Below are positions 4,182 through 22,744 of a stretch of DNA of 64,000 nt, piece by piece. Location of the stretch: sequence record OK254198.1; one strand, written 5' to 3'. Position 1 is the stretch's first letter, and each line of letters begins with the position of its first letter. The DNA comes from Escherichia phage PSD2001. The position numbers and the translations under genes are program-made. The notes under the pieces were generated by a model. The model ran no database searches, was not told the origin of the DNA, and worked only from the letters and a program-made list of their open reading frames with translations.

Positions 4182-4457
4182 TTATAATCTTTTAAATTTG
4201 AAACAATACATTGCAAATAAATCAGAAAAATGTCTATCAACCCATATTCTTTGCACTGGACTAGTAACAGTCAGCATATAATGTGATTTTTGTAAATTTA
4301 TTCCATTTTTATTTGGGCATTCTTTATTAACAGAATGATACGTGCTTGCTACTATTTCAATTTCCCTTTCATATCTCTCGCTATCTGTTTGTGTGGGGAT
4401 AAATGCAATCCCGGCAATAACAAAAATAGAGATATACGCCCAAATCTTATATATCAT
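4182..4457 (-). CDS. Hypothetical membrane-anchored protein
   Basis: 91 aa; N-terminal TM segment 'IWAYISIFVIAGIAFIP'. Confidence 0.5.
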   Translation of the reverse strand: MIYKIWAYISIFVIAGIAFIPTQTDSERYEREIEIVASTYHSVNKECPNKNGINLQKSHYMLTVTSPVQRIWVDRHFSDLFAMYCFKFKRL

Positions 4458-4464
4458 AAGGACC

Positions 4465-5037
4465 TCAGCTTGTCAATTCGAGCCAATGTTTCCTGCATAA
4501 AGATACGTACGATTCATTCCCACCGACCAATACTTGCTCGCCGTCCTTCACAGCAGCACCGTCGATTACTCGAGTGGTCATGGTTGCTTTCCGGCCGCAA
4601 TGACAGACGCCCTTTAATTCAACCAGTTTATCCGAAATAGCCAGAAGTCTGGCCGAACCGGGAAATAATTGACCCCGAAAATCTGTTCTTAACCCGTAAC
4701 ACATAACGGGGATATTGTAATTATCGACCACTTGAGCTAACTGGTCAATTTGCTCTGGTAACAAAAATTGAGCTTCATCGACCAGGACACAATGGATATC
4801 CTTTTGAGACTCGGCCCATTTATAGAATTCAAACAGGTTCATGTCGGCCGTTACCAGGTTTGCTTCCTGGCTAATACCGATGCGTGATTTAATTTCGCCT
4901 TCCGAGTCCCGATTATCAATAACAGGTTTTAGCAAAAGCACACTCATTCCACGCTCTTTATAGGAATAAGCTGCAGTCAGCAATGAAGCTGTTTTGCCTG
5001 CATTCATTGCTGCGTAATGATAAATTAAACTCGCCAT
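4465..5037 (-). CDS. tk: Thymidine kinase
   Basis: 190 aa; P-loop 'AAMNAGKTASLL', 'VLVDEAQF', C-terminal Cys cluster 'CHCGRKAT...SLCRKH' typical of type II thymidine kinases. Confidence 0.95.
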   Translation of the reverse strand: MASLIYHYAAMNAGKTASLLTAAYSYKERGMSVLLLKPVIDNRDSEGEIKSRIGISQEANLVTADMNLFEFYKWAESQKDIHCVLVDEAQFLLPEQIDQLAQVVDNYNIPVMCYGLRTDFRGQLFPGSARLLAISDKLVELKGVCHCGRKATMTTRVIDGAAVKDGEQVLVGGNESYVSLCRKHWLELTS

Positions 5038-5046
5038 ATCACCTTC

Positions 5047-5232
5047 TTATTCTGTAATACTTTCCAGATAATTTTCTAAATCGTCTGAAGCCTTATTAAG
5101 GGCTTCTAGCGCTTTATAATAGTCTTCACGGGAGTAATATTCTGTATGAAGTTCTTCGTCGTATTCGCTTTTAGCATCAACAACAGTTTCAATCATATCC
5201 AGAATTTTATTTTTCTGTTCTTTAGTAATCAT
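5047..5232 (-). CDS. Hypothetical small acidic protein (tandem paralog 1)
   Basis: 61 aa; N-term 'TKEQKNKILDMIE' parallels 'SKEQKDKLFELIHE' of next gene. Confidence 0.5.
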   Translation of the reverse strand: MITKEQKNKILDMIETVVDAKSEYDEELHTEYYSREDYYKALEALNKASDDLENYLESITE

Positions 5233-5240
5233 AATATACC

Positions 5241-5426
5241 TTAAAGAGTATTCACATAAGCAATTAATTTGTTTTCTTTCTCATCAAACCGATTAGCAAA
5301 TTCTTCCTGATGTTCGGCATCTATCGGGCCATATTCATCATAAAAAGCGTTTGCTTCCGTATGCTCATCCAAAAGCTCATGAATAAGCTCAAACAATTTA
5401 TCTTTTTGTTCTTTACTTAGGCTCAT
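5241..5426 (-). CDS. Hypothetical small acidic protein (tandem paralog 2)
   Basis: 61 aa from internal ATG preceded by SD AAAGGTG. Confidence 0.5.
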   Translation of the reverse strand: MSLSKEQKDKLFELIHELLDEHTEANAFYDEYGPIDAEHQEEFANRFDEKENKLIAYVNTL

Positions 5427-5635
5427 AACCATTGCACCTTTAAACAATATTCATCTACGTGTTGGACACGTTTGTTTTTGTCAATAAAAGTATATTCAAC
5501 ATACTCGCCGATATACCACTTATCTACATTGTGAGGACTTTTTATAGGACACTTGGTTACCCGTGTTTCGGACCAGTGTCGAATAATTGTAGCTTTATTT
5601 TTAGGGTCAAACGGATGTGGGTAATGTGCTTTCAT
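5423..5635 (-). CDS. Hypothetical protein
   Basis: 70 aa ORF, overlaps neighbours by a few nt. Confidence 0.5.
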   Translation of the reverse strand: MKAHYPHPFDPKNKATIIRHWSETRVTKCPIKSPHNVDKWYIGEYVEYTFIDKNKRVQHVDEYCLKVQWL

Positions 5636-6086
5636 AATCCACCACTATCAAATCAATATCAGGAGTAAACATATCAATTAACCGGGAAACCTTATCCCAA
5701 TCACCACCTGCAATACCACATCCAATCCTGGGAATATAAATCACGGGCTTGAACAAAAGTGATTCTGCTTGTCGATTTAATTCTATCATGCAATTTACTA
5801 AAGCGCCATAATCCAGATTTGGACCCGGTTCATACTGTGTATAAAGGTTATAGCACATACCAAATCCAGTTGGCTTATGTTTAAAAACGATAGACATATC
5901 ACCGAGTTTTTCTCGGGAACCGTATTCAGTTGATGTCTTATCCATTTCTAAAATTTTTGGGTAAGCCTTTGCCAGTTGGCCAGCGACGCCTGAACCCATT
6001 GTGTGAAAGCAGTTGCAACCATGTGCAATAATATTGCCTTGAAGAAAGAGGGCGACGATATCGCCCTTAATATAGTTAACAATCAT
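5607..6086 (-). CDS. Macro-domain protein (putative ADP-ribose binding/processing)
   Basis: 159 aa; 'GDIVA...AHGCNCFHTMGSGVAGQLAKAYP' and 'IPRIGCGIAGGDW' match the two glycine-rich macro-domain motifs. Confidence 0.65.
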   Translation of the reverse strand: MIVNYIKGDIVALFLQGNIIAHGCNCFHTMGSGVAGQLAKAYPKILEMDKTSTEYGSREKLGDMSIVFKHKPTGFGMCYNLYTQYEPGPNLDYGALVNCMIELNRQAESLLFKPVIYIPRIGCGIAGGDWDKVSRLIDMFTPDIDLIVVDYESTLPTSV

Positions 6087-6442
6087 TTAGAGTTCAATCC
6101 TCTGTTATAGGAATCGACTAACCTGTCCACCATACTGGTGCAGGCCGCCTTATATTTTGCACTTGATAAAATGCAATCCATTTCAAATAATTTCTTTTCA
6201 TATTTGTTGGATAATACATTCTTTTTCAAAAGCGTATGTTCAACATCATTTTGACCATCTTTATAGGCTGCGGTGAGCTTGGCACTGAACTGGATTATAC
6301 AATCCACATTGCTTGCTGCACAATAATCTTTAGCCGTCCTCGTTGCATATTCTATGATGCTGTTGTTGTCGTCGCTCTGTACTGAAGCTATTCCTCCCAT
6401 GCTGAATACTAACCCTATGGCTAAAGTGATAACTCTTACCAT
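6083..6442 (-). CDS. Hypothetical secreted protein
   Basis: 119 aa; N-terminal signal peptide 'MVRVITLAIGLVFSMGGIASVQS'; four Cys. Confidence 0.55.
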   Translation of the reverse strand: MVRVITLAIGLVFSMGGIASVQSDDNNSIIEYATRTAKDYCAASNVDCIIQFSAKLTAAYKDGQNDVEHTLLKKNVLSNKYEKKLFEMDCILSSAKYKAACTSMVDRLVDSYNRGLNSK

Positions 6443-6444
6443 TT

Positions 6445-6987
6445 TTAATCCACCGTTTTTAATAGGCCTCGTGATTTTAAGTAGTTAGCTTTTTCTAGGA
6501 CCTGTGAAGCATACTTATTACCAGCTTTCACATTCCACCCTGCGTTATATGATGATAGTGTTTTCCTTATATCCCCCTTATGAATATTCAACCAGTATGA
6601 AAGCTCAATATAAGCCCAGCGTGCACTGTTCTCTCTCTTGCTTATCATCTTGATTATTTCTTTATCTGTCATTGTCCACCCAACCTGTTTCACGCGTTCG
6701 CGGACGGTTGGAAGATAATTTTGGAATATACCATATGCGTGATGCTTATCTTTATTTAATCCAGTATTAACCCCAGCAGAACTTTCCTGCCAGGTTAAAC
6801 CAGCCATGATATATCCCAAACCATTATGTTGGTGCGGATTTTCTTTGTACTTACCATTTTTCTGGAACTGTTCTCCAAACGCATAAGCATATTGGAGGTT
6901 CTCCATTTGTTCATTACTGAAAGTAGGCTCTACGCTATGGGCAGACATACTAACTGTCAATAGTAAGGTGGCGATTACTTTTTTCAT
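6445..6987 (-). CDS. Secreted lytic transglycosylase-like protein (SLT/lysozyme-like domain)
   Basis: 180 aa; signal peptide 'MKKVIATLLLTVSMSAHS'; 'TWQESSAG...AYGIFQ' matches SLT catalytic E-S ... A-x-G-hh-Q motif. Confidence 0.65.
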   Translation of the reverse strand: MKKVIATLLLTVSMSAHSVEPTFSNEQMENLQYAYAFGEQFQKNGKYKENPHQHNGLGYIMAGLTWQESSAGVNTGLNKDKHHAYGIFQNYLPTVRERVKQVGWTMTDKEIIKMISKRENSARWAYIELSYWLNIHKGDIRKTLSSYNAGWNVKAGNKYASQVLEKANYLKSRGLLKTVD

Positions 6988-6997
6988 GAATTCCCCA

Positions 6998-7456
6998 TTA
7001 GATATAAATCACTTTTGTGCTAATTTTTCCTTCCAGACGATTAGAGTTAACAAACGCCATACGGCAACACATGGTCGGAGACTTCCCAGGAAGAGCTGGG
7101 TTAACTGTCATTCCTAACCATAGGTTCTTGTCTGTGATTTCCAGACGAAGTGGACGATAGTTCACATTCGGGTCAATTTGTGCTTCAACTTCCGGGAGTG
7201 GTTTCATCTCCAGGAATTCAACGATTTCTTTTACATGTGGTGTGATTTTTCCAAACAAATCAAAAACATATTGTTCATCAATTTCACGTTGGATTGCACG
7301 GTCCAACAGGTGTGGACTGTACTTAATGAAGAATGCTTCAAGGCCTGCTTCTTTACAAGCCTTGTTGATAGCATTATTAATTTTGAGGAACTCCGTTTCA
7401 AAAATGCGACGAAGTTTATTGCGGCGAATGTAAACACTTGAATCGATAGTAGTCAT
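6998..7456 (-). CDS. regB: RegB-like endoribonuclease
   Basis: 152 aa from ATG with SD AAGGAG; 'IRRNKLRRIFETEF...KYSPHLLDRAIQREIDEQYVFDLF...LRLEITDKNLWLG' closely parallels T4 RegB as recalled. Confidence 0.85.
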   Translation of the reverse strand: MTTIDSSVYIRRNKLRRIFETEFLKINNAINKACKEAGLEAFFIKYSPHLLDRAIQREIDEQYVFDLFGKITPHVKEIVEFLEMKPLPEVEAQIDPNVNYRPLRLEITDKNLWLGMTVNPALPGKSPTMCCRMAFVNSNRLEGKISTKVIYI

Positions 7457-7461
7457 GATTA

Positions 7462-7512
7462 TCTCCTTTTGTTTGATGGGATAATCATAACTCATTTCAA
7501 TCTGCTTGTACA

Positions 7513-7514
<2 letters not shown>
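7462..7514 (-). promoter_or_regulatory. PeSS-like early promoter (-35 GTGTACA, -10 TATGAT, TATCCCATC arm)
   Basis: Minus-strand read GTGTACAAGCAGATTGAAATGAGTTATGATTATCCCATCAAAC upstream of regB start. Confidence 0.55.
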
Positions 7515-8092
<578 letters not shown>

Positions 8093-8096
<4 letters not shown>

Positions 8097-8326
8097 TTCA
8101 CTTCCTCGCCAGTTGCGATATCATATTCTACCAAACGAAGGCCTTCAGTCCAACCTTGCACGGAGATATAGGTAGACGGGTAAATCATTTCTTTACCATT
8201 CCACCGACCGCCATCCCAGACTTCCAGAAAGTCTTGTTCACCTGGTCCATTAAACCATTCAACAAATCTTTTCAGAGCTTCATCAGAGCCTTCAATTGTC
8301 AATTTAGACATATTTTTTCCAGTCAC
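8093..8326 (-). CDS. Hypothetical protein
   Basis: 77 aa ORF. Confidence 0.45.
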
Positions 8327-8600
8327 TAATTAATCGCACATCCTGGTCATAGGTCAGGAGGCTACGAGTGATAATACCCTTACACGGTCCAGAAATAAAT
8401 TCCAGAGTAAAGTAAGGAACCTGTTTCATTAATCGGATGCTTGGCGCATGGCATCTAAAACGAGAGCCCTTAAAGGGCCCTGTCATGAATACATATTCTA
8501 ATGGATAGAAATAAGCATATTCGAAATTTGTAGTAAGGTCCTCTCTTCGGACCTTACGTGAGAAATAACAGAACTCAAAAAGTTCTTCATCAGTCATCAT
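8304..8600 (-). CDS. Hypothetical protein
   Basis: 98 aa ORF. Confidence 0.5.
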   Translation of the reverse strand: MMTDEELFEFCYFSRKVRREDLTTNFEYAYFYPLEYVFMTGPFKGSRFRCHAPSIRLMKQVPYFTLEFISGPCKGIITRSLLTYDQDVRLISDWKKYV

Positions 8601-9142
8601 TGCATTCCTATCACAAAGAACAGAGGACGTGTGGTTTCATTGGTTTCTTCACATGATGCACGACAGCAATGTTGCACTACCTTTATATGGGCATCATAAA
8701 TCTTGTCCATATCAGGAGCTTTAATAGGTTCATCAATTATATACAATACGCGTGAAAGCGCAAGGCCACGGAATTTAGAACCTTCATTACCAATAAAGCT
8801 ACGTAATGAATCATGAAATAGGCGATGGCGAATATCTTCGTCATTAAAACGAATAAAATCATTTTTGATAGAATTGTATGAAACTCTGGCATATGCTGAA
8901 GTATTGGACAAGACAATTACCGTGCCACCGTTATAAAGCCAATTGTAAGCAAAATCAGTTACTGCGGTAGACTTACCTGATTGTCGCCCGCCATCCATAC
9001 GGAGTGTGCAGTATTCTTTGAGCAAGACTTCCATTGGAGGAATATAACAATCGGTCTTACAAAGTTCTTCTATTCGAGCATCAGAATGGTGGGTAAAAGC
9101 ATTCATCAGGGATAGATAAGGTCCAGTTAAAAAAGTTCTCAT
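8597..9142 (-). CDS. Predicted P-loop NTPase
   Basis: 181 aa; Walker A 'DGGRQSGKST', Walker B-like 'VLYIIDEP'. Confidence 0.55.
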   Translation of the reverse strand: MRTFLTGPYLSLMNAFTHHSDARIEELCKTDCYIPPMEVLLKEYCTLRMDGGRQSGKSTAVTDFAYNWLYNGGTVIVLSNTSAYARVSYNSIKNDFIRFNDEDIRHRLFHDSLRSFIGNEGSKFRGLALSRVLYIIDEPIKAPDMDKIYDAHIKVVQHCCRASCEETNETTRPLFFVIGMQ

Positions 9143-9304
9143 ATTGTTTCTCTTAAGGTTTTGGGCCATTCCTTGGCACATAATTCATCCGTGCATCCGT
9201 ATGTAAACCCTTTACCGCACTTGGGCTCGACCTTATTACAGGTAGGGAAAGGTCCATCACTCAGAGGACACGAAGTTCATGAGGAGAGGGTCGGCTTGCC
9301 TTTA

Positions 9305-9604
9305 TTAGAAAGAACCAGAACCTTTAATTGTGTTCTGGCGACCTTTATTTTCCAATTCAGAATGGTCAATTTCATATGCTTGTGCCACGCCAAAAGCCTT
9401 TTTAACTTTAGCTAAAGAACCTTTAGATGTAACAATATTAAAAGTATTACCTTTGGTAAAATCAACCAAATCCACTTGCACACCCTGTTTACCGAGGCTT
9501 GCTACAATGGCATCAACATATTGTTGGTCTAAATTGCCTTGAACCCCAATTTGAAATGCTTTAGGAGCTTTGGCTTCAGTAATAAATTCTTGATAAGTTT
9601 TCAT
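9305..9604 (-). CDS. Internal-protein-like, capsid-targeting N-terminus (MKTYQEFITE)
   Basis: 99 aa; first 10 aa match the T4 internal-protein CTS decapeptide ending in I-x-E (gp21 site); preceded by PeSS promoter. Confidence 0.7.
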   Translation of the reverse strand: MKTYQEFITEAKAPKAFQIGVQGNLDQQYVDAIVASLGKQGVQVDLVDFTKGNTFNIVTSKGSLAKVKKAFGVAQAYEIDHSELENKGRQNTIKGSGSF

Positions 9605-9609
9605 TTTAT

Positions 9610-9662
9610 TCTCTCTAAGTTGATGGGATAATTATGCACTATCCCATCAAAAAGTAAACAGT
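9610..9662 (-). promoter_or_regulatory. PeSS-like early promoter (-35 TGTTTAC, -10 CATAAT inside GATGGGATAG/TATCCCATC inverted repeat)
   Basis: Inverted repeat brackets -10; 17-nt spacer. Confidence 0.6.
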
Positions 9663-9925
9663 TATGCTTTACCGCCAGAAACAATACCAAAGGTCTCAAA
9701 GTCCCATTCAATATCGTCAACATCAACTTTCTTACCAGCAACCACGAATGCGATTTCGCGACGTTTTGCATAGGTGACAATTTCTTTACCATCGCCGCCA
9801 AAGAAAGAATAACCATTGCGCTTCATGGTGCCAAAGTCTTCAGCATCACCAGCGAATGCGCGGACTTTAAAGGAACCAGCAGGAGCTTTGGCAGATTCAG
9901 TAATAAATTCTTGATAAGTTTTCAT
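9662..9925 (-). CDS. Internal-protein-like, capsid-targeting N-terminus (MKTYQEFITE)
   Basis: 87 aa from internal ATG; 35 nt at the 5' end identical to 9305..9604 gene start; mature region differs. Confidence 0.7.
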   Translation of the reverse strand: MKTYQEFITESAKAPAGSFKVRAFAGDAEDFGTMKRNGYSFFGGDGKEIVTYAKRREIAFVVAGKKVDVDDIEWDFETFGIVSGGKA

Positions 9926-9973
9926 TTTATATTCCATTGTTTGGTTGATAAAATCATTATACAACCTTTTTAG

Positions 9974-10390
9974 TTAAGCGTACACAGCTTTCCCATAGTA
10001 TTTGTACCAGGTAGGTTTTTGAGAAATTTTCTCATTCAGTCTGGCTTGACTGATTTCAATTGACCAGATTGATGGTTGATAATCATTTTTCCATTCATCA
10101 GGAATATCACTTAAATCTTGGGTAGAAATATCTTTTATGTTAAACCCTCGCTTTAAACATTCTGCAATAAGTTCTTGATGACGGTTTTTAAGGAACAAAA
10201 GTTTATCATAAAAGAAGGTAACATGACCAGTCCCTAAAAGAAAAGATGATGGAATTTTAAAGTCAGAAACCTTTTTACCATTTTGTACATGCTTACGAAC
10301 AGCACCAAAAACGCGAGGAAGTTCACGATATTCAGCCATAAGATGTTGGTCAGCAAGTTCAGATACCAGGGTCAAATTAATGCGAGTCAT
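9974..10390 (-). CDS. denV: Endonuclease V (pyrimidine-dimer DNA glycosylase)
   Basis: 138 aa from '[31 protein letters not shown]...', near-identical to T4 EndoV N-terminus as recalled. Confidence 0.95.
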
Positions 10391-10418
10391 GTTTGTTCTC
10401 CTATGTTTGTAGGAGAAC

Positions 10419-10447
10419 ATTATATCACACGTATCGTGGAAGTAAAC
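10419..10447 (-). promoter_or_regulatory. T4-type early promoter upstream of denV (-35 GTTTAC, -10 TATAAT)
   Basis: Minus-strand GTTTAC-17nt-TATAAT about 30 nt upstream of ATG. Confidence 0.5.
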
Positions 10448-10449
10448 TG

Positions 10450-10752
10450 TTATTTACCTTTAATTGCTTTAGCTGCTTCGATAGCCGCTTGCTGAAGGTC
10501 ATCCATAGACATACCGAACTTAGAAGCAAAGTTATCAATTTTCTTTTCGACAGAATTCAAAGGCTTGGCCTGTTTACCTTCATTAGCGCCAGGGAGAGCT
10601 AGAATACGCTCTTTGTCAATATAAAGGCTTACAAGTTTCTTACGGTCTTTATCTGGTAAATCATGAAATGAATGGGCCTTTTTATTTACAGCGGCTTCTA
10701 ATTTACCTGCACTTACGCGCGCTTCGGTGATAAATTCTTTATACGTTTTCAT
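10450..10752 (-). CDS. Internal protein II-like ([23 protein letters not shown])
   Basis: 100 aa; CTS N-terminus; located between e and denV exactly where T4 carries ipIII/ipII. Confidence 0.75.
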
Positions 10753-10760
10753 ATTTTACC

Positions 10761-11252
10761 TTATTTGTATGCGCTAAAAGTTCCGGTACGGAACGTTTCT
10801 ATAACTCGTTTGGCTCGGTTCGGAGTCTGGACTTTATACCATCTCGAGTCAGCCAGTTCCTTGGCGGCGGCTTCCCACGATTTGGCCTTCAACAATCGCA
10901 TACCCTTAGGAAAACCAGCAACACCAGCAACACCCATCTGGAATACCATATTAATGAGTGCACAACGACGAACTTCATCTAGCACATCATAAACAGGTTT
11001 TAAGACAGGGTGTCTCAAGATTCCGGCTTTAGCTTTTTCGACCGAACGGTTAAACAATGTTTCAGCTTCGTGCTGGGTTATGCGACCATTACAGACGCGA
11101 CCCATGAGCTTGTCGAGCTCGGCACGAGCAACATCTTTTGATGGGTTCTTAGTTATCAGTTGCCCGATACCAATGGTCCAATAGCCTTCAGTATCTTTAT
11201 ACAAATCCAACTTACAACCTTCATCTATACGTAACATTTCGAATATATTCAT
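10761..11252 (-). CDS. e: Endolysin (T4 lysozyme family)
   Basis: '[35 protein letters not shown]...' matches T4 lysozyme incl. catalytic E11/D20/T26 context. Confidence 0.97.
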
Positions 11253-11254
11253 AA

Positions 11255-11274
11255 TACCCCCTTATATAGGGGTA
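11255..11274 (-). promoter_or_regulatory. RNA hairpin sequestering the gene e Shine-Dalgarno, with late-promoter-like AATAAATA just upstream
   Basis: Minus strand TACCCC-TATATAAG-GGGGTA-TT-ATG; SD AAGGGGG lies in the 3' arm. Confidence 0.5.
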
Positions 11275-11278
11275 TTTA

Positions 11279-11734
11279 TTATCCGAAAATTTGAGTCATT
11301 ACCTTGTACATCGATTTGCCCATCACATACTGCCATTGACTCGGTTTAATCAGAGCAAATGCATCGAACTCTGGAACTGTACTACCATCCGGAAAGGTAT
11401 GATAGGCAGAGCATTTACTATGTCTGAACTGCTCATGCTCGACCGGGACCGTGTACAAAAACAGGTGAAGGTTTTTATTATCTGAATAACGGAACTCACC
11501 CAGGTCTTTTAAGAATGCTGGGTCATATTGGGTAAATCCAGTTTCTTCTTCGGTTTCACGAATAGCAGCTTCAATCGGGGATTCACCAGCTTCAACGTGA
11601 CCCTTAGGGATGTCCCATTTGTGCGCAGGCGCACCTGGTTTACGAGAACCGGTCACACGACCCATGAATAACTCTTTATCTTCAGTCATGAAAATAATGC
11701 CAGCAGATAATTCCTTCACTTTCTTACTCATCAT
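11279..11734 (-). CDS. nudE: Nudix hydrolase
   Basis: Nudix box 'GHVEAGESPIEAAIRETEEETG'; adjacent to e as in T4. Confidence 0.85.
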   Translation of the reverse strand: MMSKKVKELSAGIIFMTEDKELFMGRVTGSRKPGAPAHKWDIPKGHVEAGESPIEAAIRETEEETGFTQYDPAFLKDLGEFRYSDNKNLHLFLYTVPVEHEQFRHSKCSAYHTFPDGSTVPEFDAFALIKPSQWQYVMGKSMYKVMTQIFG

Positions 11735-11960
11735 CGCGTTTCCATGATTGGTTAAAAATATCACTCATTAAAAATTCAAGTCTATTTTCCAATGAAGGAC
11801 TTTCACTATCGGATACTTGAATCATATAATCGGAAATAGGTCGGAACATATCCAAGTCGCTTTCCAAATCTTCTTTGATTTTCTCTTCTGATGTTCCGGT
11901 GTCATAGGAATACAGATAAGAATCACATGACTCGGATTTAATATAAATTGCAATACTCAT
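11724..11960 (-). CDS. Hypothetical acidic protein
   Basis: 78 aa ORF. Confidence 0.5.
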   Translation of the reverse strand: MSIAIYIKSESCDSYLYSYDTGTSEEKIKEDLESDLDMFRPISDYMIQVSDSESPSLENRLEFLMSDIFNQSWKRDDE

Positions 11961-12541
11961 TTACGGCATTCCTCAATAAAAGAATTTAATGTATTTTTCT
12001 TAGCGATATCGTCGTATACCTTTTTAACTTTAGAAATACGAAAAGGTACTTCAATAGCCATAGTCCATAAAAATGATGCAATAAGTCCAACAGCAGCAGA
12101 AGAAATGCACGCGCCCATTACAGCCACAGGTGCTTCATTTTTACCTGTCAAGAAAAACAACAGGATTGGTAAAAATAAGATTCCAGCCCACACATAAAAC
12201 CTGGAACAAATTAACTTATCAAATTCATCTTTCCAGGTACGAAATCCATATTTCTTGCTATAAGAAATTAATGGGTCGGGTGTCTGTTCTTTGAGTGGTT
12301 CCGGTTGATACCCATTAACAATATATCCCATTTTATATTCCTTAATTAAAAGCTCTTTCACATGACGATTGCATCGCGACCAATCAACGTTTTCCACCTT
12401 GATTCCTTCATCACCATCGTCAAGGTTCGCCCAATATTTTTTGGTAATCATAAATTCATCTCTTGATACAATTATACCTGCATTTTCTGCCCGACGGATG
12501 AAGTTTACATCAACACCCATACAACCAGGTTCATACAGCAT
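11957..12541 (-). CDS. Hypothetical membrane protein, C-terminal ...LNSFIEECRK tail family
   Basis: 194 aa; two C-proximal TM helices then basic tail shared with 15640..15993 and 15980..16339. Confidence 0.55.
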   Translation of the reverse strand: MLYEPGCMGVDVNFIRRAENAGIIVSRDEFMITKKYWANLDDGDEGIKVENVDWSRCNRHVKELLIKEYKMGYIVNGYQPEPLKEQTPDPLISYSKKYGFRTWKDEFDKLICSRFYVWAGILFLPILLFFLTGKNEAPVAVMGACISSAAVGLIASFLWTMAIEVPFRISKVKKVYDDIAKKNTLNSFIEECRK

Positions 12542-13227
12542 TACCAGCCCTCCATAGGAAATTCCAGATATACTTGAGCATTAACGCGGATTTCATTGGT
12601 GATTTTATTAACGCGGTCAGTTTTACGAGATACGCGACCAAACCAGCGCCAACCATTACCAACCGTTTTTGTTCCAGTATGCCAGGTCTGCCAGTTGAAT
12701 TCACACAACGTGCGGTCAGGAGCTTCTTGAACTAAAAGTTCACCCGCCTTGATTTTTTCCAGAACTTCCTGGTGCCACTGGCGATAGATAAGTTCGCCAT
12801 CAGGAATCTGACTGAATTCTGAAGTTCCCAGAGCAAAATGAGTAGGGCAAACAGAAGCGTTAACCAGACCCAGGATGTGTTCAGAATGGTAACGAGGGTT
12901 ATCATAATCAGGTTGTCCTGCTGTAATAAAATGTTGTCCTGCTGGAATATCTGGACGTGGTACATCATCATGGTGATACCCAGGGATAGCAGGATACCAA
13001 CCAGGCATCAACATATGGACGCGAGAGTCAAATACAACATCACGATTGGTCCAGTCCAGTGGTAATGCAGCAATAAAGCTACGGGTAATTAAACCGCCTT
13101 TATCCCAGGCAAAACTTAAATCACAATTAAAGAACATCGGTTCATTTTTGATTTCGTCATTACTGACATATTGAGCAAATTGACCAACTTCACGCATTTG
13201 ACTATTAAAAGTTTTTGAGCTATTCAT
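12541..13227 (-). CDS. Hypothetical protein, His/Trp-rich (GYHHDD motif)
   Basis: 228 aa from ATG with SD GAGGA; no confident family. Confidence 0.55.
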   Translation of the reverse strand: MNSSKTFNSQMREVGQFAQYVSNDEIKNEPMFFNCDLSFAWDKGGLITRSFIAALPLDWTNRDVVFDSRVHMLMPGWYPAIPGYHHDDVPRPDIPAGQHFITAGQPDYDNPRYHSEHILGLVNASVCPTHFALGTSEFSQIPDGELIYRQWHQEVLEKIKAGELLVQEAPDRTLCEFNWQTWHTGTKTVGNGWRWFGRVSRKTDRVNKITNEIRVNAQVYLEFPMEGW

Positions 13228-13237
13228 GATATTTTCC

Positions 13238-13474
13238 TCAGTATTCTTCATCATATTCAAAGTCTTCATCAAACTCGGGTTCCAGAGAAATTTCTTCTTC
13301 CGGGTGGAATTCACAAGGGAAGTATTCCACTTCACCACAATCGGCGTCATAGGACTGGAAATCAATTTGGATTACGGTTTCGGATACAACAATAACTTCA
13401 GCAACCAAGTCACCTGCAATTTCCATTCCAACTTTAACATCTTTAGCTTTGATAGTATTCATTTTATTCTCCAA
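13238..13474 (-). CDS. Hypothetical highly acidic small protein
   Basis: 78 aa; C-term 'EPEFDEDFEYDEEY'; PeSS promoter directly upstream. Confidence 0.55.
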   Translation of the reverse strand: MENKMNTIKAKDVKVGMEIAGDLVAEVIVVSETVIQIDFQSYDADCGEVEYFPCEFHPEEEISLEPEFDEDFEYDEEY

Positions 13475-13487
13475 TTTGGTAACTCAG

Positions 13488-13538
13488 TATGGAATCATTA
13501 TGCACTGACTCCATACTGATGTACACACTTATTTTGTG
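13488..13538 (-). promoter_or_regulatory. PeSS-like early promoter (-35 GTGTAC, -10 CATAAT, inverted repeat TCAGTATGGA/TCCATACTGA)
   Basis: Same architecture as copy at 21..68. Confidence 0.6.
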
Positions 13539-14488
13539 AAAGGACGAATTAAATGTTGGTTAGCCTTAAAGCGTTTAACATAGTCTTCGCGACCCAGGGT
13601 GTTGTACATATTAACCACTTCCTGGTAATGTTCCCAGGCATACTCGCGGAACCATCCAGAAGTAATGGAGGTACAGACTTTTTCCAGCGCAATATGGAAG
13701 CTCACAGATGGAGAGATATTGAACTCATTAGGAACCTGCGAACGCTCCAGAGCGAGCACACATGCTTCTTCATAAACCCCTGCCAGTTTAATAATCTCAG
13801 GGAGTGCTTCAAATTTTTCACGCGAGGTCATGACTTCTGAATCATCCTTCATATAAAACTTATATGCAGGCTTATCAGCAAGCGCCACAGCCTCGTGGAT
13901 GGAGTCATGGTCAAGGGTGTAGATTGTATCATTAAAGAAAGTTTTCTTGCCCACGTCTAGTTTAGGGTGACTGTATGACAGTGTTTCTGCCTGACGCTGC
14001 AGCATGATTTTCTGCAGTTCATCATTAAGAACAACACCCTTATTGCGAAGATAATTAATATGACTCATGGTCTTCAGGAAGAATGGGTTGTTCTTCAGGT
14101 AACGATGAGACAATTTAATCGCCAGACAAATATCAGGCGTCGCCCAATAGAAACCTGTAAGACGGTCTTTCTGAATATTTGCCTTCGCATATTTGAGCAG
14201 ACGATAACTTGAGGTGAAATCTTCGTCTTGAAGCTCACCAGTAATTTCTCGTACGTTGGTCAGGGCACGGACAATATAAGCTTCAAAATAGGTTTCTTTG
14301 CCATTGTACATACATTTAAAAGCTTGGACATCAGGGTTATCTACAGGAACATGAGCACCGAACATACGTGCTTTAAAGTGGTTCCAAGAACCCTGGTCAG
14401 CGATAAAGTCCCAATCAGAGTTTTCAATTTTCTGACTTTCAATCAGACCAGCGTTATGTAATGCACGAGAACCAATAACTAACATCAT
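13529..14488 (-). CDS. Hypothetical protein, possible nucleotidyltransferase-like N-terminus
   Basis: 319 aa; 'LVIGSRALHNAG...SDWDF' loosely resembles GS...DxD; weak. Confidence 0.55.
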   Translation of the reverse strand: MMLVIGSRALHNAGLIESQKIENSDWDFIADQGSWNHFKARMFGAHVPVDNPDVQAFKCMYNGKETYFEAYIVRALTNVREITGELQDEDFTSSYRLLKYAKANIQKDRLTGFYWATPDICLAIKLSHRYLKNNPFFLKTMSHINYLRNKGVVLNDELQKIMLQRQAETLSYSHPKLDVGKKTFFNDTIYTLDHDSIHEAVALADKPAYKFYMKDDSEVMTSREKFEALPEIIKLAGVYEEACVLALERSQVPNEFNISPSVSFHIALEKVCTSITSGWFREYAWEHYQEVVNMYNTLGREDYVKRFKANQHLIRPFTK

Positions 14489-14502
14489 AATATTTTCCTC
14501 AT

Positions 14503-14548
14503 TAGTTGACGGGATAATGATACTACGTTTCTTTAGACTTGTACACTA
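14503..14548 (-). promoter_or_regulatory. PeSS-like early promoter (-35 GTGTACA, -10 TATCAT, TATCCCGTCAAC arm)
   Basis: Minus-strand read upstream of 13529..14488. Confidence 0.5.
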
Positions 14549-14590
14549 AATTTCTGCACAAAGTCCTCCTATCACATCCTTGTGATAATT

Positions 14591-14824
14591 TTAGCAGCTA
14601 CTCGGATACCAGATTTTACCATCGGCACGAGCAACGAAGGTACGACCAGCTTCTTCACCATAACAAGAGCTGTTCAACCAGTCTTCAAGACGGACTTCGC
14701 CGTCATAATCATCAAGCTCAACACCAAAATCTTGAGCAGAAGCCATATCTTTTACTTTCTTATACAGTGCAGCCAGTTCAAGGGCAGCTTTTTCTAATTC
14801 AGCATGTTCAACAGCAGTAATCAT
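14591..14824 (-). CDS. Acidic small protein, W-x-SS-C tail paralog D
   Basis: 77 aa; '...EDWLNSSCYGEE...YPSSC'. Confidence 0.55.
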   Translation of the reverse strand: MITAVEHAELEKAALELAALYKKVKDMASAQDFGVELDDYDGEVRLEDWLNSSCYGEEAGRTFVARADGKIWYPSSC

Positions 14825-14833
14825 TTTATCACC

Positions 14834-15052
14834 TTAGCAAGACATAGAGGAGTTAAACCAGAAACCTTCACCTTCTGGAATACAATATTCATCACGAACC
14901 CATTCATAATCGTCATATTCCGGACTGGAAGCTGGAATATATTCTTCACCCCCGGCGTGAAAGTGTTCGCCGGTTTCATCCGCCGCAGTCAGACCTTCAC
15001 AGATTAGTGCACGGATTTGTTTTTCAATTTCTTTAACAGTTTTAGCAGTCAT
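14834..15052 (-). CDS. Acidic small protein, W-x-SS-C tail paralog C
   Basis: 72 aa; ends 'GFWFNSSMSC'. Confidence 0.55.
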   Translation of the reverse strand: MTAKTVKEIEKQIRALICEGLTAADETGEHFHAGGEEYIPASSPEYDDYEWVRDEYCIPEGEGFWFNSSMSC

Positions 15053-15061
15053 TTTATTTCC

Positions 15062-15343
15062 TTAGCATTCAGAAGAGGAAGACACCCAACCGCCTTTTTC
15101 CAGGCTGGTAGTGTAATCATGTTGGTTTACAATAGCGTACTGGGCTTCGCCGTATTCTTCCCAATGGGCAAGGTCAGCTTTCAGGGCGCCAGGAGAATAA
15201 TAGTCACCGCCCATACCGCGAGCAGGGTATATATTAAAATGAGTCTCATATTTGTCTGCAATTTCCTCGGCACGACGAATAGCTTTATGGATGTCATTTA
15301 CTGCGTTAGCCAGTTCTTTATTTTTACGGTAATCATTCATCAT
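15062..15343 (-). CDS. Acidic small protein, W-x-SS-C tail paralog B
   Basis: 93 aa; 'EEIADKYETHF...GGWVSSSSEC'. Confidence 0.55.
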   Translation of the reverse strand: MMNDYRKNKELANAVNDIHKAIRRAEEIADKYETHFNIYPARGMGGDYYSPGALKADLAHWEEYGEAQYAIVNQHDYTTSLEKGGWVSSSSEC

Positions 15344-15352
15344 AACGTTTCC

Positions 15353-15643
15353 TTAGCACATTGCCGAAGAGGAGACCCAAGCACCAACTGTAACGACACC
15401 GTTTTCAACTTCACCGCCGTTGTTTTCAATTTCATCTTTAAACCACTGGGAGCATTCATAACCGACAGGATAATATGTACGGCCTGAACCATAATCACCG
15501 GTACCAAATTGGATACCATATTCATCTGCGATTTCTTCACAGTGTTTTTCAATTTCAGAGGTCTTATTTAGAAGAGAATAGATAGCTTTTTCTGCAGATT
15601 TCTCATCATAATACTTGGGGATAGCAATTTCAATTTTATTCAT
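15353..15643 (-). CDS. Acidic small protein, W-x-SS-C tail paralog A
   Basis: 96 aa; 'EEIADEYGIQF...GAWVSSSAMC'. Confidence 0.55.
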   Translation of the reverse strand: MNKIEIAIPKYYDEKSAEKAIYSLLNKTSEIEKHCEEIADEYGIQFGTGDYGSGRTYYPVGYECSQWFKDEIENNGGEVENGVVTVGAWVSSSAMC

Positions 15644-15993
15644 GATTTACATTCCTTAATAAAGGTTTCAAGGTCATTACGTTTTGTTTTGTTCAGGAAC
15701 TTATTATACTCAGCCATTGCTGAAGCATATCTCTTCCGACTAGGAGCATTCACGGCGTTTGTGTGACAGATATCATACACAACAGGGATAAAATAAGACA
15801 CAACAGCCGGAGCGATTATCATAAAGAAACCCATCTCAATAGGCATCACTCCTTCGATTGCAGCCATAACCGTGGTCATTACCAGACCAACCAAACCACC
15901 AAGCATGGCAGTGACAATCCCGAATAATAAATTGGCACCAATATCATATTCAGCCAATTGATAAACATGCGAGGCAAGACTAGGCCGTTCCAT
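15640..15993 (-). CDS. Small two-TM membrane protein, ...LETFIKECKS tail
   Basis: 117 aa from ATG with SD AAGGAGG; two TM helices. Confidence 0.55.
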   Translation of the reverse strand: MERPSLASHVYQLAEYDIGANLLFGIVTAMLGGLVGLVMTTVMAAIEGVMPIEMGFFMIIAPAVVSYFIPVVYDICHTNAVNAPSRKRYASAMAEYNKFLNKTKRNDLETFIKECKS

Positions 15994-16339
15994 TACGAAC
16001 CTCCTTAATAAATTCTTCGGCACATTTAATTTTGTGCTCTTCTTGTAGGGAAACACATTTTTGTTCCCACTCTTTAACTCGCCCACGATATCCTTTATTC
16101 ATATGATTTTGATGCCACACGTTTATCAATATCATACCCAGGACTGTAATAAAAGGTGCTGCAATTATTAGTGACCAGGCGACTCCGACACTAATGATAT
16201 CCATATCCCCACAAAGCACCATCATTATAACCCCAACGATGCACATGGACAAAGCTCCAAATGGAGGCATCAAGTCTTTATCAATCTTGTTCGCGTATAC
16301 AAATTTTTCTGGTTTACTTGGCAGATATAACGTTCGCAT
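15980..16339 (-). CDS. Small two-TM membrane protein, ...EEFIKEVRNG tail
   Basis: 119 aa from internal ATG with SD AAGGGG; two TM helices. Confidence 0.55.
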   Translation of the reverse strand: MRTLYLPSKPEKFVYANKIDKDLMPPFGALSMCIVGVIMMVLCGDMDIISVGVAWSLIIAAPFITVLGMILINVWHQNHMNKGYRGRVKEWEQKCVSLQEEHKIKCAEEFIKEVRNGTA

Positions 16340-16868
16340 TTTGAACCCCTTTAGCATATTCACGACATTCAGCAATAAAACGATTAAGCTTTCGTTTTTG
16401 TTTATGACTTTCTAATGTGTACTCAGCCGTCAAATCAAGAAGCTCAGCTTTATCATAATTTTTAATATCAGTATAAGCTGGGCGGCGGTCAACCATTCCA
16501 AATACATCACCATTCTCTAGCGTCACATAACATACTAAATGGTAATCATCATCTGCCGCATTAAGGAGTACGCAATCATTGCTCTCGTTTAAAGCATACA
16601 CTGAATAACGTAGTCCAGCGAATTCTGCTTGTTGGATACCCAGATTTACGTCAATAATTTCCAAGGCATCTGCGAAAGAAAGGTCTTCAGCTAAAGCAAA
16701 AATAAAAGGCAATTTAGTAGTATCGCCGCGACTTGTTGTTCTTCTTAAGAAATCATTGGAATAACCCAAGTCACCACGGATTCTATAAAGAACTGTATTA
16801 GTTTCAGTAGCAAGACCACTACCGCCAAACCAGTCTACATTTGATATAAGGTCGGTATATAAGCTCAT
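16314..16868 (-). CDS. Hypothetical protein with ...LNRFIAECREY C-terminal motif
   Basis: 184 aa from ATG with SD GGAGAGGAG. Confidence 0.55.
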   Translation of the reverse strand: MSLYTDLISNVDWFGGSGLATETNTVLYRIRGDLGYSNDFLRRTTSRGDTTKLPFIFALAEDLSFADALEIIDVNLGIQQAEFAGLRYSVYALNESNDCVLLNAADDDYHLVCYVTLENGDVFGMVDRRPAYTDIKNYDKAELLDLTAEYTLESHKQKRKLNRFIAECREYAKGVQNANVISAK

Positions 16869-16911
16869 AATATTCTCCTCTCCCAATTAGGGGGCAAAGC
16901 CCCCTTTTATC

Positions 16912-17505
16912 TTACTTAAGTGAATTGATGTATTCTTCAATGTCAGCGGACGTGGTATCCACACCAACCTGTGGGCCTTTGAAGGTTTCAACACGCATCA
17001 GAGTGTCTTCAATATCAATCTTAGTCAATGCAGCGATTTCAACAACATCATCTGCGGTCGCAATACCCAGAGCAGATACTTTACGGGTTTCTCGGATGTA
17101 TTCCAGTTTAACAGCTAGTTCCTGACGAGAGTCATCTAGCTCTTTAACTTTCAATTTAATTTCATTACGCATTTCAACATAATCATCTGCCTTCTTACGA
17201 AGTTGTTTAGCAGTGCGACGATACAGGAGACCCAGTTTAGCATGGACCTGGACATCTGCACCATCAGCAATCAGTTTGCGGATTTCACGCTCTTTTGAAG
17301 CGGCGAGTTGGTCTTTTTCATTCGCTAACTCGCGGATGCGTTTTTCTTCATTAACAGACTTAACGTGGGCAGTCTGGAGCTCAGTAATCTTGTCAATCAG
17401 GGTAGAAGCCGCTTGAGTATATTGGTCTTCAATAGACAGGTTTTTTGTCATTGCAGTACCCAGTTTGGAGCGGATGAATTCAACAAGTTTCTTTAAAGTA
17501 TTCAT
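16912..17505 (-). CDS. Hypothetical coiled-coil protein
   Basis: 197 aa, heptad-rich charged sequence; family not established. Confidence 0.55.
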
Positions 17506-17577
17506 GGTATTTCCTTCAGTTGGTTAATGTTTTATTATCCAGGGAACATACTATCATGTTCCCATTAAAGCACTAAT

Positions 17578-17883
17578 TTAGATTTTGTTTTCCTGCACAC
17601 CATAGTAAAGTTCATCAGACACAATATCCAGGATGCGGCGAACATATTCATCATGGTATTGGCAGTCAAAATCAAATGCAACAGTAGTTTCCGCTTCACG
17701 AGTGAATTTAACTTGTACATTCAGGTGATTAACAATGTTAGTTAATTTATCAGTAAAGAACTCTTTTGCTACCGCCTGTTGGACTTGCACTTTGAACTTG
17801 GTGTTACGAATCATATTTTCAGCAGATGCGAAATTACCAGTTTTATCAAAGTCAACAAGTGCCAGGTTGATGATGAATTTCAT
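17578..17883 (-). CDS. Hypothetical protein
   Basis: 101 aa; downstream of partial PeSS. Confidence 0.5.
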   Translation of the reverse strand: MKFIINLALVDFDKTGNFASAENMIRNTKFKVQVQQAVAKEFFTDKLTNIVNHLNVQVKFTREAETTVAFDFDCQYHDEYVRRILDIVSDELYYGVQENKI

Positions 17884-17894
17884 TTTATTCTCCA

Positions 17895-17930
17895 GTGTTT
17901 TATTTGGTAACTCAGTATGGAATCATTATG
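17895..17930 (-). promoter_or_regulatory. Partial PeSS (-10 CATAAT + TCCATACTGAGTTACC arm; -35 half replaced by hairpin)
   Basis: 3' half of PeSS identical to other copies; upstream half is a G5/C5 hairpin 17941-17958. Confidence 0.45.
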
Positions 17931-17965
17931 CCTTAAAGCAGGGGGCTTGTATACCCCCTTTTTAA

Positions 17966-18409
17966 TTAAATTTCAAATTCTTTGCGGAAGTTGGAAGCAT
18001 AAGACTGAACTGATGCTTTGTTGAATCCAAACTCACGCACAATCATATCAATAACAGCTCTACGGGCAGCACCATTAGACATATTAACAGTTTTGAACAT
18101 ATCATAGCATAAATCTTTGTTGCTCATGCCGGAGCGTTTAGGTGCCTTACGTTCAGCTTTTGGTTCAGCTTTAGGAGTAGGTTTAACTTCTGGTTTAACC
18201 TGTCCATCATTCAGACCTTTAAAAATTTTACCTGCCAGCGTTGCCAGTTTAGCAGCTTCGCCACGAGTGATACCAAATACTGCCGGGTTAAATGAAATAC
18301 CTTCAGCTGTCAGACGTTTGAAGAACATACGTGCTGCGGATTGTGCTTCAGCTTCAGAAGAGTTGTTTAATGCCAGTTTAATGTACTTAACCAGTTTTGA
18401 AGTTTTCAT
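17966..18409 (-). CDS. Hypothetical protein, C-terminal 'AARRAVID...VQSYASNFRK' domain
   Basis: 147 aa; C-terminal ~40 aa shared with 18863..19288. Confidence 0.55.
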   Translation of the reverse strand: MKTSKLVKYIKLALNNSSEAEAQSAARMFFKRLTAEGISFNPAVFGITRGEAAKLATLAGKIFKGLNDGQVKPEVKPTPKAEPKAERKAPKRSGMSNKDLCYDMFKTVNMSNGAARRAVIDMIVREFGFNKASVQSYASNFRKEFEI

Positions 18410-18411
18410 TT

Positions 18412-18470
18412 TATTATCCCGTTTGTTTATTTGGTAACTCAGTATGGAATCATTATGTCTTAGTTAAATT
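18412..18470 (-). promoter_or_regulatory. PeSS-like early promoter (-35 GTGTAC, -10 CATAAT; left repeat arm absent)
   Basis: GTGTAC-18nt-CATAAT-GATTCCATACTGAGTTACC upstream of 17966..18409. Confidence 0.5.
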
Positions 18471-18482
18471 CCAAAGTACACA

Positions 18483-18779
18483 TTAATTTTCAGAAGTTGG
18501 GAAATAAACTTCAAAGTCATACATGTTTACTACCGCAGACGCGATTGCCTGGTACTGCATACCTAAGAAAGTTTTCTTATTCTTGCGCCACAAGTTAACC
18601 ATTTCTGTTTTGATGCATGCCAGGGAATAGTTGGATGCAGGATACTGTTTGATGATTGCAACAACTTCTTCAGAAGCAGTTTCGCACAATTCATTCAGTT
18701 GAGCTTCAATTTTAGCAGAAATGATTGCTTTGTTTTCTTTTTGAGCTTGGGTAGCGTGCCACGCAGGTGCGTTAAACAT
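18483..18779 (-). CDS. Hypothetical protein
   Basis: 98 aa; PeSS upstream. Confidence 0.5.
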   Translation of the reverse strand: MFNAPAWHATQAQKENKAIISAKIEAQLNELCETASEEVVAIIKQYPASNYSLACIKTEMVNLWRKNKKTFLGMQYQAIASAVVNMYDFEVYFPTSEN

Positions 18780-18789
18780 TTTTATTCTC

Positions 18790-18848
18790 CAGTGTTTTAT
18801 TTGTTAACTCAGTATGGGATAATTATACACTATCCCACCTGGAAGTAA
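18790..18848 (-). promoter_or_regulatory. PeSS-like early promoter (-10 TATAAT inside GGGATAG/TATCCC inverted repeat)
   Basis: Minus-strand read TTTACTTCC-AGGTGGGATAGTG-TATAAT-TATCCCATACTGAG. Confidence 0.55.
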
Positions 18849-18862
18849 AACACTTTTCTCAA

Positions 18863-19288
18863 TTATTTTTGAGCTTTGCGGAAGTTGGAAGCATATGACT
18901 GAACAACAGTCTTTTTGATATCATGGGTGTTAACCAGAACATCAATCAGAGCGCGGCGGGCAGCATTATCATTCATATCAATTTCTGCAAATGCCTGGAA
19001 GCAAATTTCACGAGCGTTACCAGATTTGGACTGGATTTTTTCTTCTTTAACTTCTTCAATTGGGAATTCAATCATTTCAGCTTTGATTAATTCAATGATG
19101 GATTCTTTTGACTGTTTGGTGTTTACCTTCAGTTCAGAATTAAGGGACTTAGCGATGGCAACAATCTGGGTTGAAGTCAGATGGATAAGTGCATCTTCAC
19201 GAATGCAGATTTCGCATACTTCGTCAGCAACCATTTTGTTGGTGATGCGGGTAACAGAGAATGCAGAGGTCAGGGTCAGAAAGTTCAT
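18863..19288 (-). CDS. Hypothetical protein, C-terminal 'AARRALID...VQSYASNFRK' domain
   Basis: 141 aa from internal ATG with SD GGAGAAA; paralogous C-terminus to 17966..18409. Confidence 0.55.
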   Translation of the reverse strand: MNFLTLTSAFSVTRITNKMVADEVCEICIREDALIHLTSTQIVAIAKSLNSELKVNTKQSKESIIELIKAEMIEFPIEEVKEEKIQSKSGNAREICFQAFAEIDMNDNAARRALIDVLVNTHDIKKTVVQSYASNFRKAQK

Positions 19289-19317
19289 TTTATTTCTCCA
19301 AAGTTTTGTTTGATTCA

Positions 19318-19372
19318 GTGTGTAACTCAGTATGGAATCATTATGCACCCGGTCAATTCGGATGTACACTAC
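19318..19372 (-). promoter_or_regulatory. PeSS-like early promoter (-35 GTGTACA, -10 CATAAT)
   Basis: GTAGTGTACA-...-CATAATGATTCCATACTGAGTTAC. Confidence 0.55.
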
Positions 19373-19404
19373 TTTTTGAAGAAAATTTCAAATTTATTCG
19401 GGGT

Positions 19405-19436
19405 ATAAAAAAGCCCCAACCTTTCGGGAGGGGCTA
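19405..19436 (-). terminator. Intrinsic terminator closing the tRNA-region transcript
   Basis: GC-rich hairpin AGCCCC...GGGGCT followed by T-run on minus strand. Confidence 0.6.
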
Positions 19437-19739
19437 TACCTTGTCGGGGTTCCACCTGCAAGGCAAGTGTTTGTACGAAACGCCGGGGTTCGAACCCGGT
19501 TATTAAGTAGTTGACGCTACCCAATATTTTTAAAAGGCCATATCTCGACCATATCCGAACGTTCCGTCAAAAACGCCACTCGGCTTACGGCAAAGATATT
19601 TCCTCGAATCGATAATTCGGTGCGCCGTTTCTGCTGTGATGTAAGGGGATATTAACAAATCGTAAAGATTTATTAAGACCAGTCCTTACGCAGGGAACAT
19701 CAGTCCGACGACTTACCGGTAGCGACCCGGTTTCTTGTT

Positions 19740-19815
19740 TGGTACCTCTAGAAGGACTCGAACCCTCACCTTTAACCTTAGAACGATTATATGCTATCCG
19801 TTACACTATAGAGGC
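19740..19815 (-). tRNA. tRNA-Arg (anticodon TCT), CCA encoded
   Basis: Manual fold: acceptor GCCTCTA/TAGAGGT (one G-U), D-arm, anticodon stem TAATC/GGTTA with loop GTTCTAA, T-arm GAGGG-TTCGAGT-CCTTC, then ACCA. Confidence 0.8.
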
Positions 19816-20466: not shown

Positions 20467-20492
20467 CAAAAATCTCCTATTAAGTATAGGAG

Positions 20493-20500
20493 TATTTATA
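20493..20500 (-). promoter_or_regulatory. Late-promoter TATAAATA upstream of the tRNA-region nuclease gene, followed by an SD-sequestering hairpin
   Basis: Minus strand TATAAATA-CTCCTATACTTAATAGGAG-ATTTTTG-ATG; SD AGGAG is in the 3' arm. Confidence 0.5.
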
Positions 20501-20527: not shown

Positions 20528-20602
20528 TGACCCAGACCAGATTTGAACTGGTAACCTTTCCCTTATGAGGGGACTGCTGCTAACCAATTGAGCTACAGGG
20601 CC
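20528..20602 (-). tRNA. tRNA with anticodon CAT (Met or Ile2)
   Basis: Manual fold: acceptor GGCCCTG, anticodon loop CTCATAA, perfect T-arm ACCAG-TTCAAAT-CTGGT; one acceptor mismatch and a 3-bp D-stem. Confidence 0.7.
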
Positions 20603-22381: not shown

Positions 22382-22383
22382 TA

Positions 22384-22736: not shown

Positions 22737-22744
22737 TTGAAATC

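Follow-up and report, generated by a model that had tools for sequence, protein, structure and literature searches.

The window, a 64,000-nucleotide stretch of the genome of Escherichia phage PSD2001 (sequence record OK254198.1), contains between the lysozyme gene e and vs.8 three open reading frames (ORF1, ORF2, and ORF3; Table 1) whose products start, as an earlier note on this DNA had reported, with MKTY(Q/K)EFITE. All three lie on the minus strand, and the order of the genes as transcribed is nudE, e, ORF3, denV, ORF2, ORF1, and vs.8. Megablast comparison of positions 9200-11300 with GenBank phages matched 649 records. The best match was Escherichia phage P896 (98.8% identity over the full length), followed by CJ20, MN01, VR7, and SP18, all of them belonging to the genus Gaprivervirus within the Tevenvirinae. 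These matches place the window in a T-even phage of Gaprivervirus, in the VR7/SP18 group. Two internal-protein (IP) loci have been described in these phages, and more than 30 IP variants are confined to them (Arbiol et al. 2010, PMC2839356); the three genes sit within one of the two, e-denV-vs.8. The conserved gene denV splits this IP locus into two slots, e-denV and denV-vs.8. The position of T4 ipII/ipIII, to which all three genes had been assigned, is occupied by ORF3 only, in the e-denV slot; ORF1 and ORF2 are both located between denV and vs.8, where T4 has a gap of about 26 nt.

Some annotations in related records touch this region. In the GenBank group of UPEC07, YenP8, UPEC01, and CJ20, the vs.8 homologue is labelled 'IpIII internal head protein', and an ORF of the size of vs.5 is labelled 'pyrimidine dimer DNA glycosylase'; both labels are doubtful. 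An overlapping out-of-frame ORF that corresponds to window positions 9601-9816 is annotated in CJ20 as a hypothetical protein (CJ20_235).

Table 1. Features of the IP locus, of the second IP locus, and the gp21 gene (positions in the window)
Feature	Position	Strand	Evidence or remark
vs.8	about 8597-9139	-	follows ORF1 in transcription order
ORF1, Ip7-type internal-protein gene, 99 aa	9305-9604	-	phrog_2667 'internal head protein', E 8e-43; predicted N-terminus after cleavage (residue 11 on) AKAPKAFQIGVQGNLDQQYVDAIVASLGK
CTS DNA module, Ip7-type gene	9563-9609	-	5 nt 5' of ATG, 10 CTS codons, and AKAP codons
PeSL-like element 5' of ORF1	9622-9659	-	early-promoter-like site TTTACT-16-CATAAT (9658-9631) overlapping a 13-bp stem-loop
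ORF2, RB69 ORF125c / VR7 ORF127c-type IP gene, 87 aa	9662-9925	-	corresponds to VR7 gp127 and SP18 gp123; predicted N-terminus after cleavage (residue 11 on) SAKAPAGSFK
CTS DNA module, ORF125c-type gene	9881-9930	-	35 nt as in 9575-9609 (100%), 12 nt as in 9563-9574
denV (endonuclease V)	9974-10390	-	Pfam Pyr_excise, E 1e-15; denV in relatives' annotation
ORF3, assigned as ipII orthologue, 100 aa	10450-10752	-	phrog_7857 'internal virion protein', E 1e-54; predicted cleavage after E10; predicted N-terminus after cleavage (residue 11 on) ARVSAGK
CTS DNA module, ipII, diverged copy	10723-10757	-	83% identity to the other two copies
e (lysozyme), upstream border of locus	10761-11252	-	Pfam Phage_lysozyme, E 7e-13; annotated so in relatives
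nudE	11279-11764	-	locus neighbour, before e in transcription order
CTS gene, second IP locus	22103-22381	-	MKTYQEFINE
CTS gene, second IP locus	22437-22736	-	MQTFHEFLVE; further L-A-E site at residues 14-16
CTS gene, second IP locus	22745-23017	-	MKTFNELFNE
CTS gene, second IP locus	23026-23358	-	MNIKTYNEFLAE
gp21 prohead protease	53928-54566	+	Pfam Peptidase_S77, E 8e-102; phrog_207 'head maturation protease'

The N-termini of the three products were compared with the capsid-targeting sequence (CTS) of T4, MKTYQEFIAE, from which they differ at positions 5 and 9 only; MKTYQEFITE is common to ORF1 and ORF2. Mutagenesis of T4 IPIII has shown that residues 4 and 7 are determinants of targeting and residues 8 and 10 determinants of processing (PMC9026906), and Y4, F7, I8, and E10 are kept in all three proteins. 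The motif I-x-E, which had been pointed out as the site cut by the prohead protease gp21, was confirmed in each protein as a single (L/I)xE site, I-T-E at residues 8-10, and the gene that had been taken to encode gp21 gave a clear Peptidase_S77 match (Table 1). Predicted mature products have 77-90 aa, with pI values of 9.3 (ORF1), 6.2 (ORF2), and 9.7 (ORF3). Classical IPs are basic proteins, and the near-neutral mature ORF2 departs from them. The CTS residues, the single cleavage site, the presence of gp21, the IP locus, and the annotations in relatives all agree with the proposal that these genes encode candidate injected anti-defence proteins, and ORF1 to ORF3 are very likely capsid-targeted internal-protein genes of the T4 type. 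A literature search returned nothing usable on virion proteomics of Gaprivervirus or Dhakavirus, or in the way of named Ip7 or Ip10 studies.

ORF3 and T4 IpII are 94% identical as proteins and 94.4% identical as DNA over all 303 nt. Both have 100 aa, occupy the slot directly upstream of denV, and share the CTS determinant residues. ORF3 differs from T4 IpII by six substitutions, two of them within the CTS (Q5K and A9T), and its gene, unlike T4 ipII, directly follows e (ipIII being absent) and has no promoter or stem-loop of its own. The gene is annotated as ipII or 'internal protein II' in the sister phages CJ20 and MN01, and the family comprises 197 phage records, 166 of which are at least 95% identical. 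This similarity and the conserved place upstream of denV identify ORF3 as the full-length orthologue of T4 ipII. IpII is one of the proteins that have been purified from T4 heads. In T4, Ip2 inhibits the GmrSD of ECOR21, a BrxU-like type IV restriction enzyme (Silas et al. 2025, PMC12373910). The view of the earlier note that all three products were of unknown specificity is therefore outdated for ORF3, the 94%-identical T4 protein having a known target, and by analogy a GmrSD/BrxU-type type IV restriction enzyme is the likely target of ORF3.

Mature ORF1 aligned with T2 ip7 in tblastn searches (46.7% identity over residues 1-87 of 89, E 2e-14), and the CTSs of the two proteins are of like kind. 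Homologues of mature ORF1, intact and of full length, were found in 283 phage records (41-100% identity), and in the VR7 record the counterpart of ORF1 is named ip7 and noted as similar to T2 Ip7 and JS98 ORF112c. Judged by these alignments, ORF1 is a member of the Ip7 family, a name that comes from the nomenclature of Repoila (1994). The T2 gene differs in its location, since it lies at the other IP locus (57B-ip5-ip7-trna.4) and ORF1 between denV and vs.8.

ORF2 belongs to a family whose members in VR7, SP18, and Mosigvirus phages are annotated as 'internal head protein'; the VR7 record remarks on the similarity to RB69 ORF125c. It shares the position after denV with RB69 ORF125c and VR7 ORF127c, from which no substantive difference was seen. 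Full-length homologues of mature ORF2 occurred in 205 phage records (68-100% identity), mostly from Mosigvirus, the identity being 97-100% to Gaprivervirus copies versus about 72-75% to those of Mosigvirus. In a large protein database ORF2 was represented by five clusters only, all from T4-like phage contigs. A paralogue of ORF2 is located at the other IP locus of the window (22437-22736), with 38% identity across 61 aa (tblastn E 1e-11). Neither the ORF2 family nor the family of this paralogue shows any variation in the motif GDAEDF...NGY.

The mature regions of the three proteins had been described as unrelated to each other, and our comparisons bear this out: BLASTP found the N-terminus only, and hhalign with CTS-trimmed family alignments gave a probability of 0.4%. 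Homology between mature ORF1 and mature ORF2, both of which are placed in phrog_2667, was considered and rejected, neither BLASTP nor hhalign on the trimmed alignments having revealed any. Since the mature parts show no such similarity, phrog_2667 is probably a mixed cluster that is joined through the CTS and the AKAP residues. Searches with ORF1, ORF2, and ORF3 against Pfam, NCBIfam, PADLOC, and PDB sequences gave no matches. AlphaFold2 models of ORF1 and ORF2 showed compact folds, that of ORF1 being ferredoxin-like (mean pLDDT 74.7), and the predicted structures of the mature regions offered no functional clue.

At the DNA level, an exact direct repeat of 35 nt spans the start codons of ORF1 and ORF2 (9575-9609 and 9896-9930), as had been noticed before. 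We estimate that an exact repeat of this length would be expected by chance about 1e-12 times in 64 kb. After a 3-nt indel the repeat resumes with 12 identical nucleotides (9563-9574 and 9881-9892) that encode AKAP, and a third copy, 83% identical, is found at the start of ORF3. The shared module had been described as extending from the promoter and ribosome-binding site (RBS) into the first codons. This description has to be corrected: since the identical block has just 5 nt before the ATG, it leaves out the RBS and any promoter, and its extension is downstream, into the AKAP codons.

A candidate promoter was found 5' of ORF1, where an early-promoter-like site overlaps a stem-loop (Table 1). 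In comparison with TTTACW-N17-TAYWAT, the site deviates by a single base in the -10 box and its spacer is 16, and the stem-loop folds as RNA with -21.1 kcal/mol (z -5.5). At the opposite end of ORF1, the 3' region (9140-9310) showed no significant folding as RNA (z -1.1). A stem near-identical to that of 9622-9659 precedes the CTS gene 22103-22381. The stem-loop GATGGGATAG...TATCCCATC overlaps an early-promoter-like -10 box both at 9622-9659 and at 22382-22441 (minus strand), in front of two CTS genes that are 12.8 kb apart. In T4, ipII, ipIII, and denV are preceded by analogous elements, GTTTAC promoters in which inverted repeats are embedded. PeSL-like elements at the two IP loci are credited to Repoila et al. 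by Arbiol et al. (PMC2839356), and a T4/PST consensus for such elements is available (Comeau 2014, PMC4122927). The element described here resembles PeSLs (Arbiol 2010; Comeau 2014) in its place between cassettes, in the overlap of a strong stem-loop with an early-promoter-like site, and in having a near-identical copy at the second IP locus; the PeSL authors, however, term the T-even IP-associated elements analogues, not homologues, of RB49-type PeSLs. Upstream of denV (10391-10446, minus strand) there is a further site, TTTACT-16-TATAAT, with 10/12 consensus matches and an extended TG, and the inverted repeat GTTCTCCTA...TAGGAGAAC that follows it contains the GGAG of the denV RBS.

The exact T4 late promoter TATAAATA was absent from the minus strand in the 16-kb stretch 4186-20493, and sites with one mismatch occurred at chance frequency. 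With no minus-strand late promoter nearby, late expression for prohead assembly is left unexplained by the sequence, which counts against the reading preferred below. In the whole window, TATAAATA was found at 19 sites versus 5 expected by chance, mostly in the half that contains the structural genes.

The second IP locus of the window (22103-23358, minus strand) lies downstream of 57B (23419-23874) and contains four CTS genes, with CTS variants that are progressively more diverged (Table 1). Only two tRNA genes (Arg-TCT and Met-CAT) were detected in the window by ARAGORN, at 19740-19815 and 20528-20602, versus nine in the T2 region that was used for comparison.

Gene content at the locus was compared among ten related phages, including P896, CJ20, MN01, VR7, SP18, 212, UPEC07, YenP8, and UPEC01. 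These carry varying subsets of ipII, an alternative IP of 89 aa, Ip10, the ORF125c type, and the Ip7 type. The e-denV slot contains ipII in the window phage, P896, CJ20, and MN01, an unrelated 89-aa CTS protein in phage 212 and UPEC07, and no gene in VR7, SP18, YenP8, and UPEC01, and in the denV-vs.8 slot Ip10, ORF125c-type, and Ip7-type genes occur in any combination. In MN01, UPEC07, and YenP8, which are devoid of ORF2, the alignment jumps from window position 9609 to 9881, and the 47 nt that overlap there are the CTS repeat; the Ip10 cassette of CJ20, SP18, and VR7 is also inserted at this repeat. The DNA identity to T4 is 94.4% for ipII versus 67% for nudE, 69% for e, 72% for denV, and 75% for vs.8, and the block of high identity has abrupt limits, namely the RBS and, at the opposite end, the -35 box (GTTTAC) of the denV promoter. 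Such a sharp mosaic boundary indicates a recent exchange between genera. Spread between loci is also apparent: the Ip7 family is found at the other IP locus in T2, and the ORF2 paralogue at the other locus of the window itself. Together, the varying subsets, the junctions in the CTS repeat, the ipII mosaic, and the occupation of both loci indicate that the cassettes move between phages and between loci. The conserved CTS-coding block at each cassette's 5' end and the early-promoter/stem-loop elements between cassettes serve as the homology patches for gain, loss, and exchange of the cassettes. In contrast to PeSL cassettes, the junctions that could be mapped here are in the CTS repeat and not in the stem-loop.

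Considered as a whole, these data are best explained by an IP locus that encodes gp21-processed, injected anti-restriction proteins in exchangeable cassettes, an interpretation that we hold with considerable confidence by analogy to T4. Equally well supported in our judgement is the identification of this locus as one of the two hyperplastic IP loci, with three independent cassettes, namely ipII, an ORF125c-type IP, and an Ip7-type IP. By homology with T4 IPIII, IPII, and IPI, packaging, cleavage, and injection of the three products would proceed as follows: the 10-residue CTS would bind each product to the gp22 scaffolding core of the prohead, gp21 would cut after I-T-E at residue 10, and the mature protein would stay in the head and then be ejected into the host with the DNA. 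The injected protein would act before phage gene expression, most likely by binding to a specific host nuclease that attacks the modified phage DNA and so blocking it. The same logic of CTS, gp21 cleavage, small compact mature protein, and co-injection is known from T4 IPI*, the inhibitor of the CT596 GmrSD, and would apply here by analogy; the mature parts, however, have no sequence similarity to IPI*, and IPI has a longer propeptide and is encoded at another locus.

IPs have been viewed as diverse defence proteins that share only the CTS (Rao and Black 2010, PMC3012670, citing Repoila 1994). T4 Ip1, Ip2, and Ip3 act on different GmrSD enzymes, inhibiting those of CT596, ECOR21 (BrxU-like), and ECOR17, respectively (PMC12373910), and ten further ip genes that were assayed against five more active GmrSD systems gave no inhibition (Silas et al. 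2025, PMC12373910). Since none of these ten other genes inhibited a GmrSD, it is only a guess that the Ip7-type and ORF125c-type proteins have a GmrSD as their target. Tentatively, the ORF1 and ORF2 proteins might be injected inhibitors of host defences that have so far been linked to no IP; if they were, their targets could conceivably be GmrSD clades beyond those tested, another modification-dependent nuclease, or another early-acting defence, a proposal that we make with the same reserve.

It is unlikely, though worth weighing, that the packaged proteins mainly serve the virion, through DNA condensation, charge neutralisation, or head-assembly kinetics, and are not specific anti-defence inhibitors. 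Such a role was proposed for T4 IPIII, each T4 IP numbers about 300 copies in a head, and head assembly is slower and the burst smaller in IPIII mutants (PMC9026906). The basic mature ORF1 and ORF3 (pI 9.3 and 9.7) would fit this role, as would the lack of GmrSD inhibition by the ten further ip genes (PMC12373910), but mature ORF2 is nearly neutral, and all three T4 IPs, IPIII included, are specific GmrSD inhibitors (PMC12373910). Moreover, gene content differs among close relatives, and since these differ in the IP genes they carry, no single IP is needed for the virion.

Far less probable is that the shared N-terminus is a DNA-level module for translation initiation or recombination only, and that the products are ordinary cytoplasmic early proteins that are not packaged. 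This would account for the identity of the ORF1 and ORF2 modules at every nucleotide and for the promoters before the genes being of the early and not the late type. The CTS-coding sequences of ORF3 and ORF1, however, have four differences in 30 nt, three of which are synonymous, and T4 uses ACA/GCC for CTS codons where the window phage uses ACT/ACT. Retention of the CTS peptide through silent changes argues against a purely nucleic-acid cause of the similarity. ORF3, furthermore, is orthologous to a T4 protein that was purified from heads, and the residues that are conserved coincide exactly with those that direct targeting and processing (PMC9026906). Shared RBS context, which the earlier note had named as an explanation that would undo its reading, is very unlikely to account for the N-terminal similarity, given these synonymous changes and an identical block that has 5 nt 5' of the ATG and no RBS. 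Finally, it is scarcely credible that ORF1 and ORF2 are decaying duplicates without a function of their own, as their lack of domain matches and their dispensability in some relatives might suggest, given their compact predicted folds and intact full-length homologues in 283 and 205 phage genomes of several genera (41-100% and 68-100% identity).

The interpretation of the locus as a set of injected anti-restriction proteins in exchangeable cassettes has clear precedents. Earlier publications cover the CTS, the lack of relation among the mature parts, the existence of two variable IP loci, and the idea of an anti-restriction role (Repoila 1994; Rao and Black 2010; Arbiol 2010; Silas 2025), and in sister phages the three genes already carry annotations as internal proteins; the earlier reading was correct in substance and not new. 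What the present analysis adds are the differing gene subsets, the junctions exactly in the 47-nt CTS repeat, and the 94% identity of ipII versus 67-75% for its flanks. The value of these results is modest and consists mainly in a correct annotation, and the Ip7-type and ORF125c-type families could be screened against the defence systems of wild E. coli. The mapped junctions provide a clean example of cassette exchange via the CTS repeat, and, if the ORF1 and ORF2 proteins do inhibit host defences so far linked to no IP, their free reassortment via this repeat would be how Gapriverviruses tune their host range.
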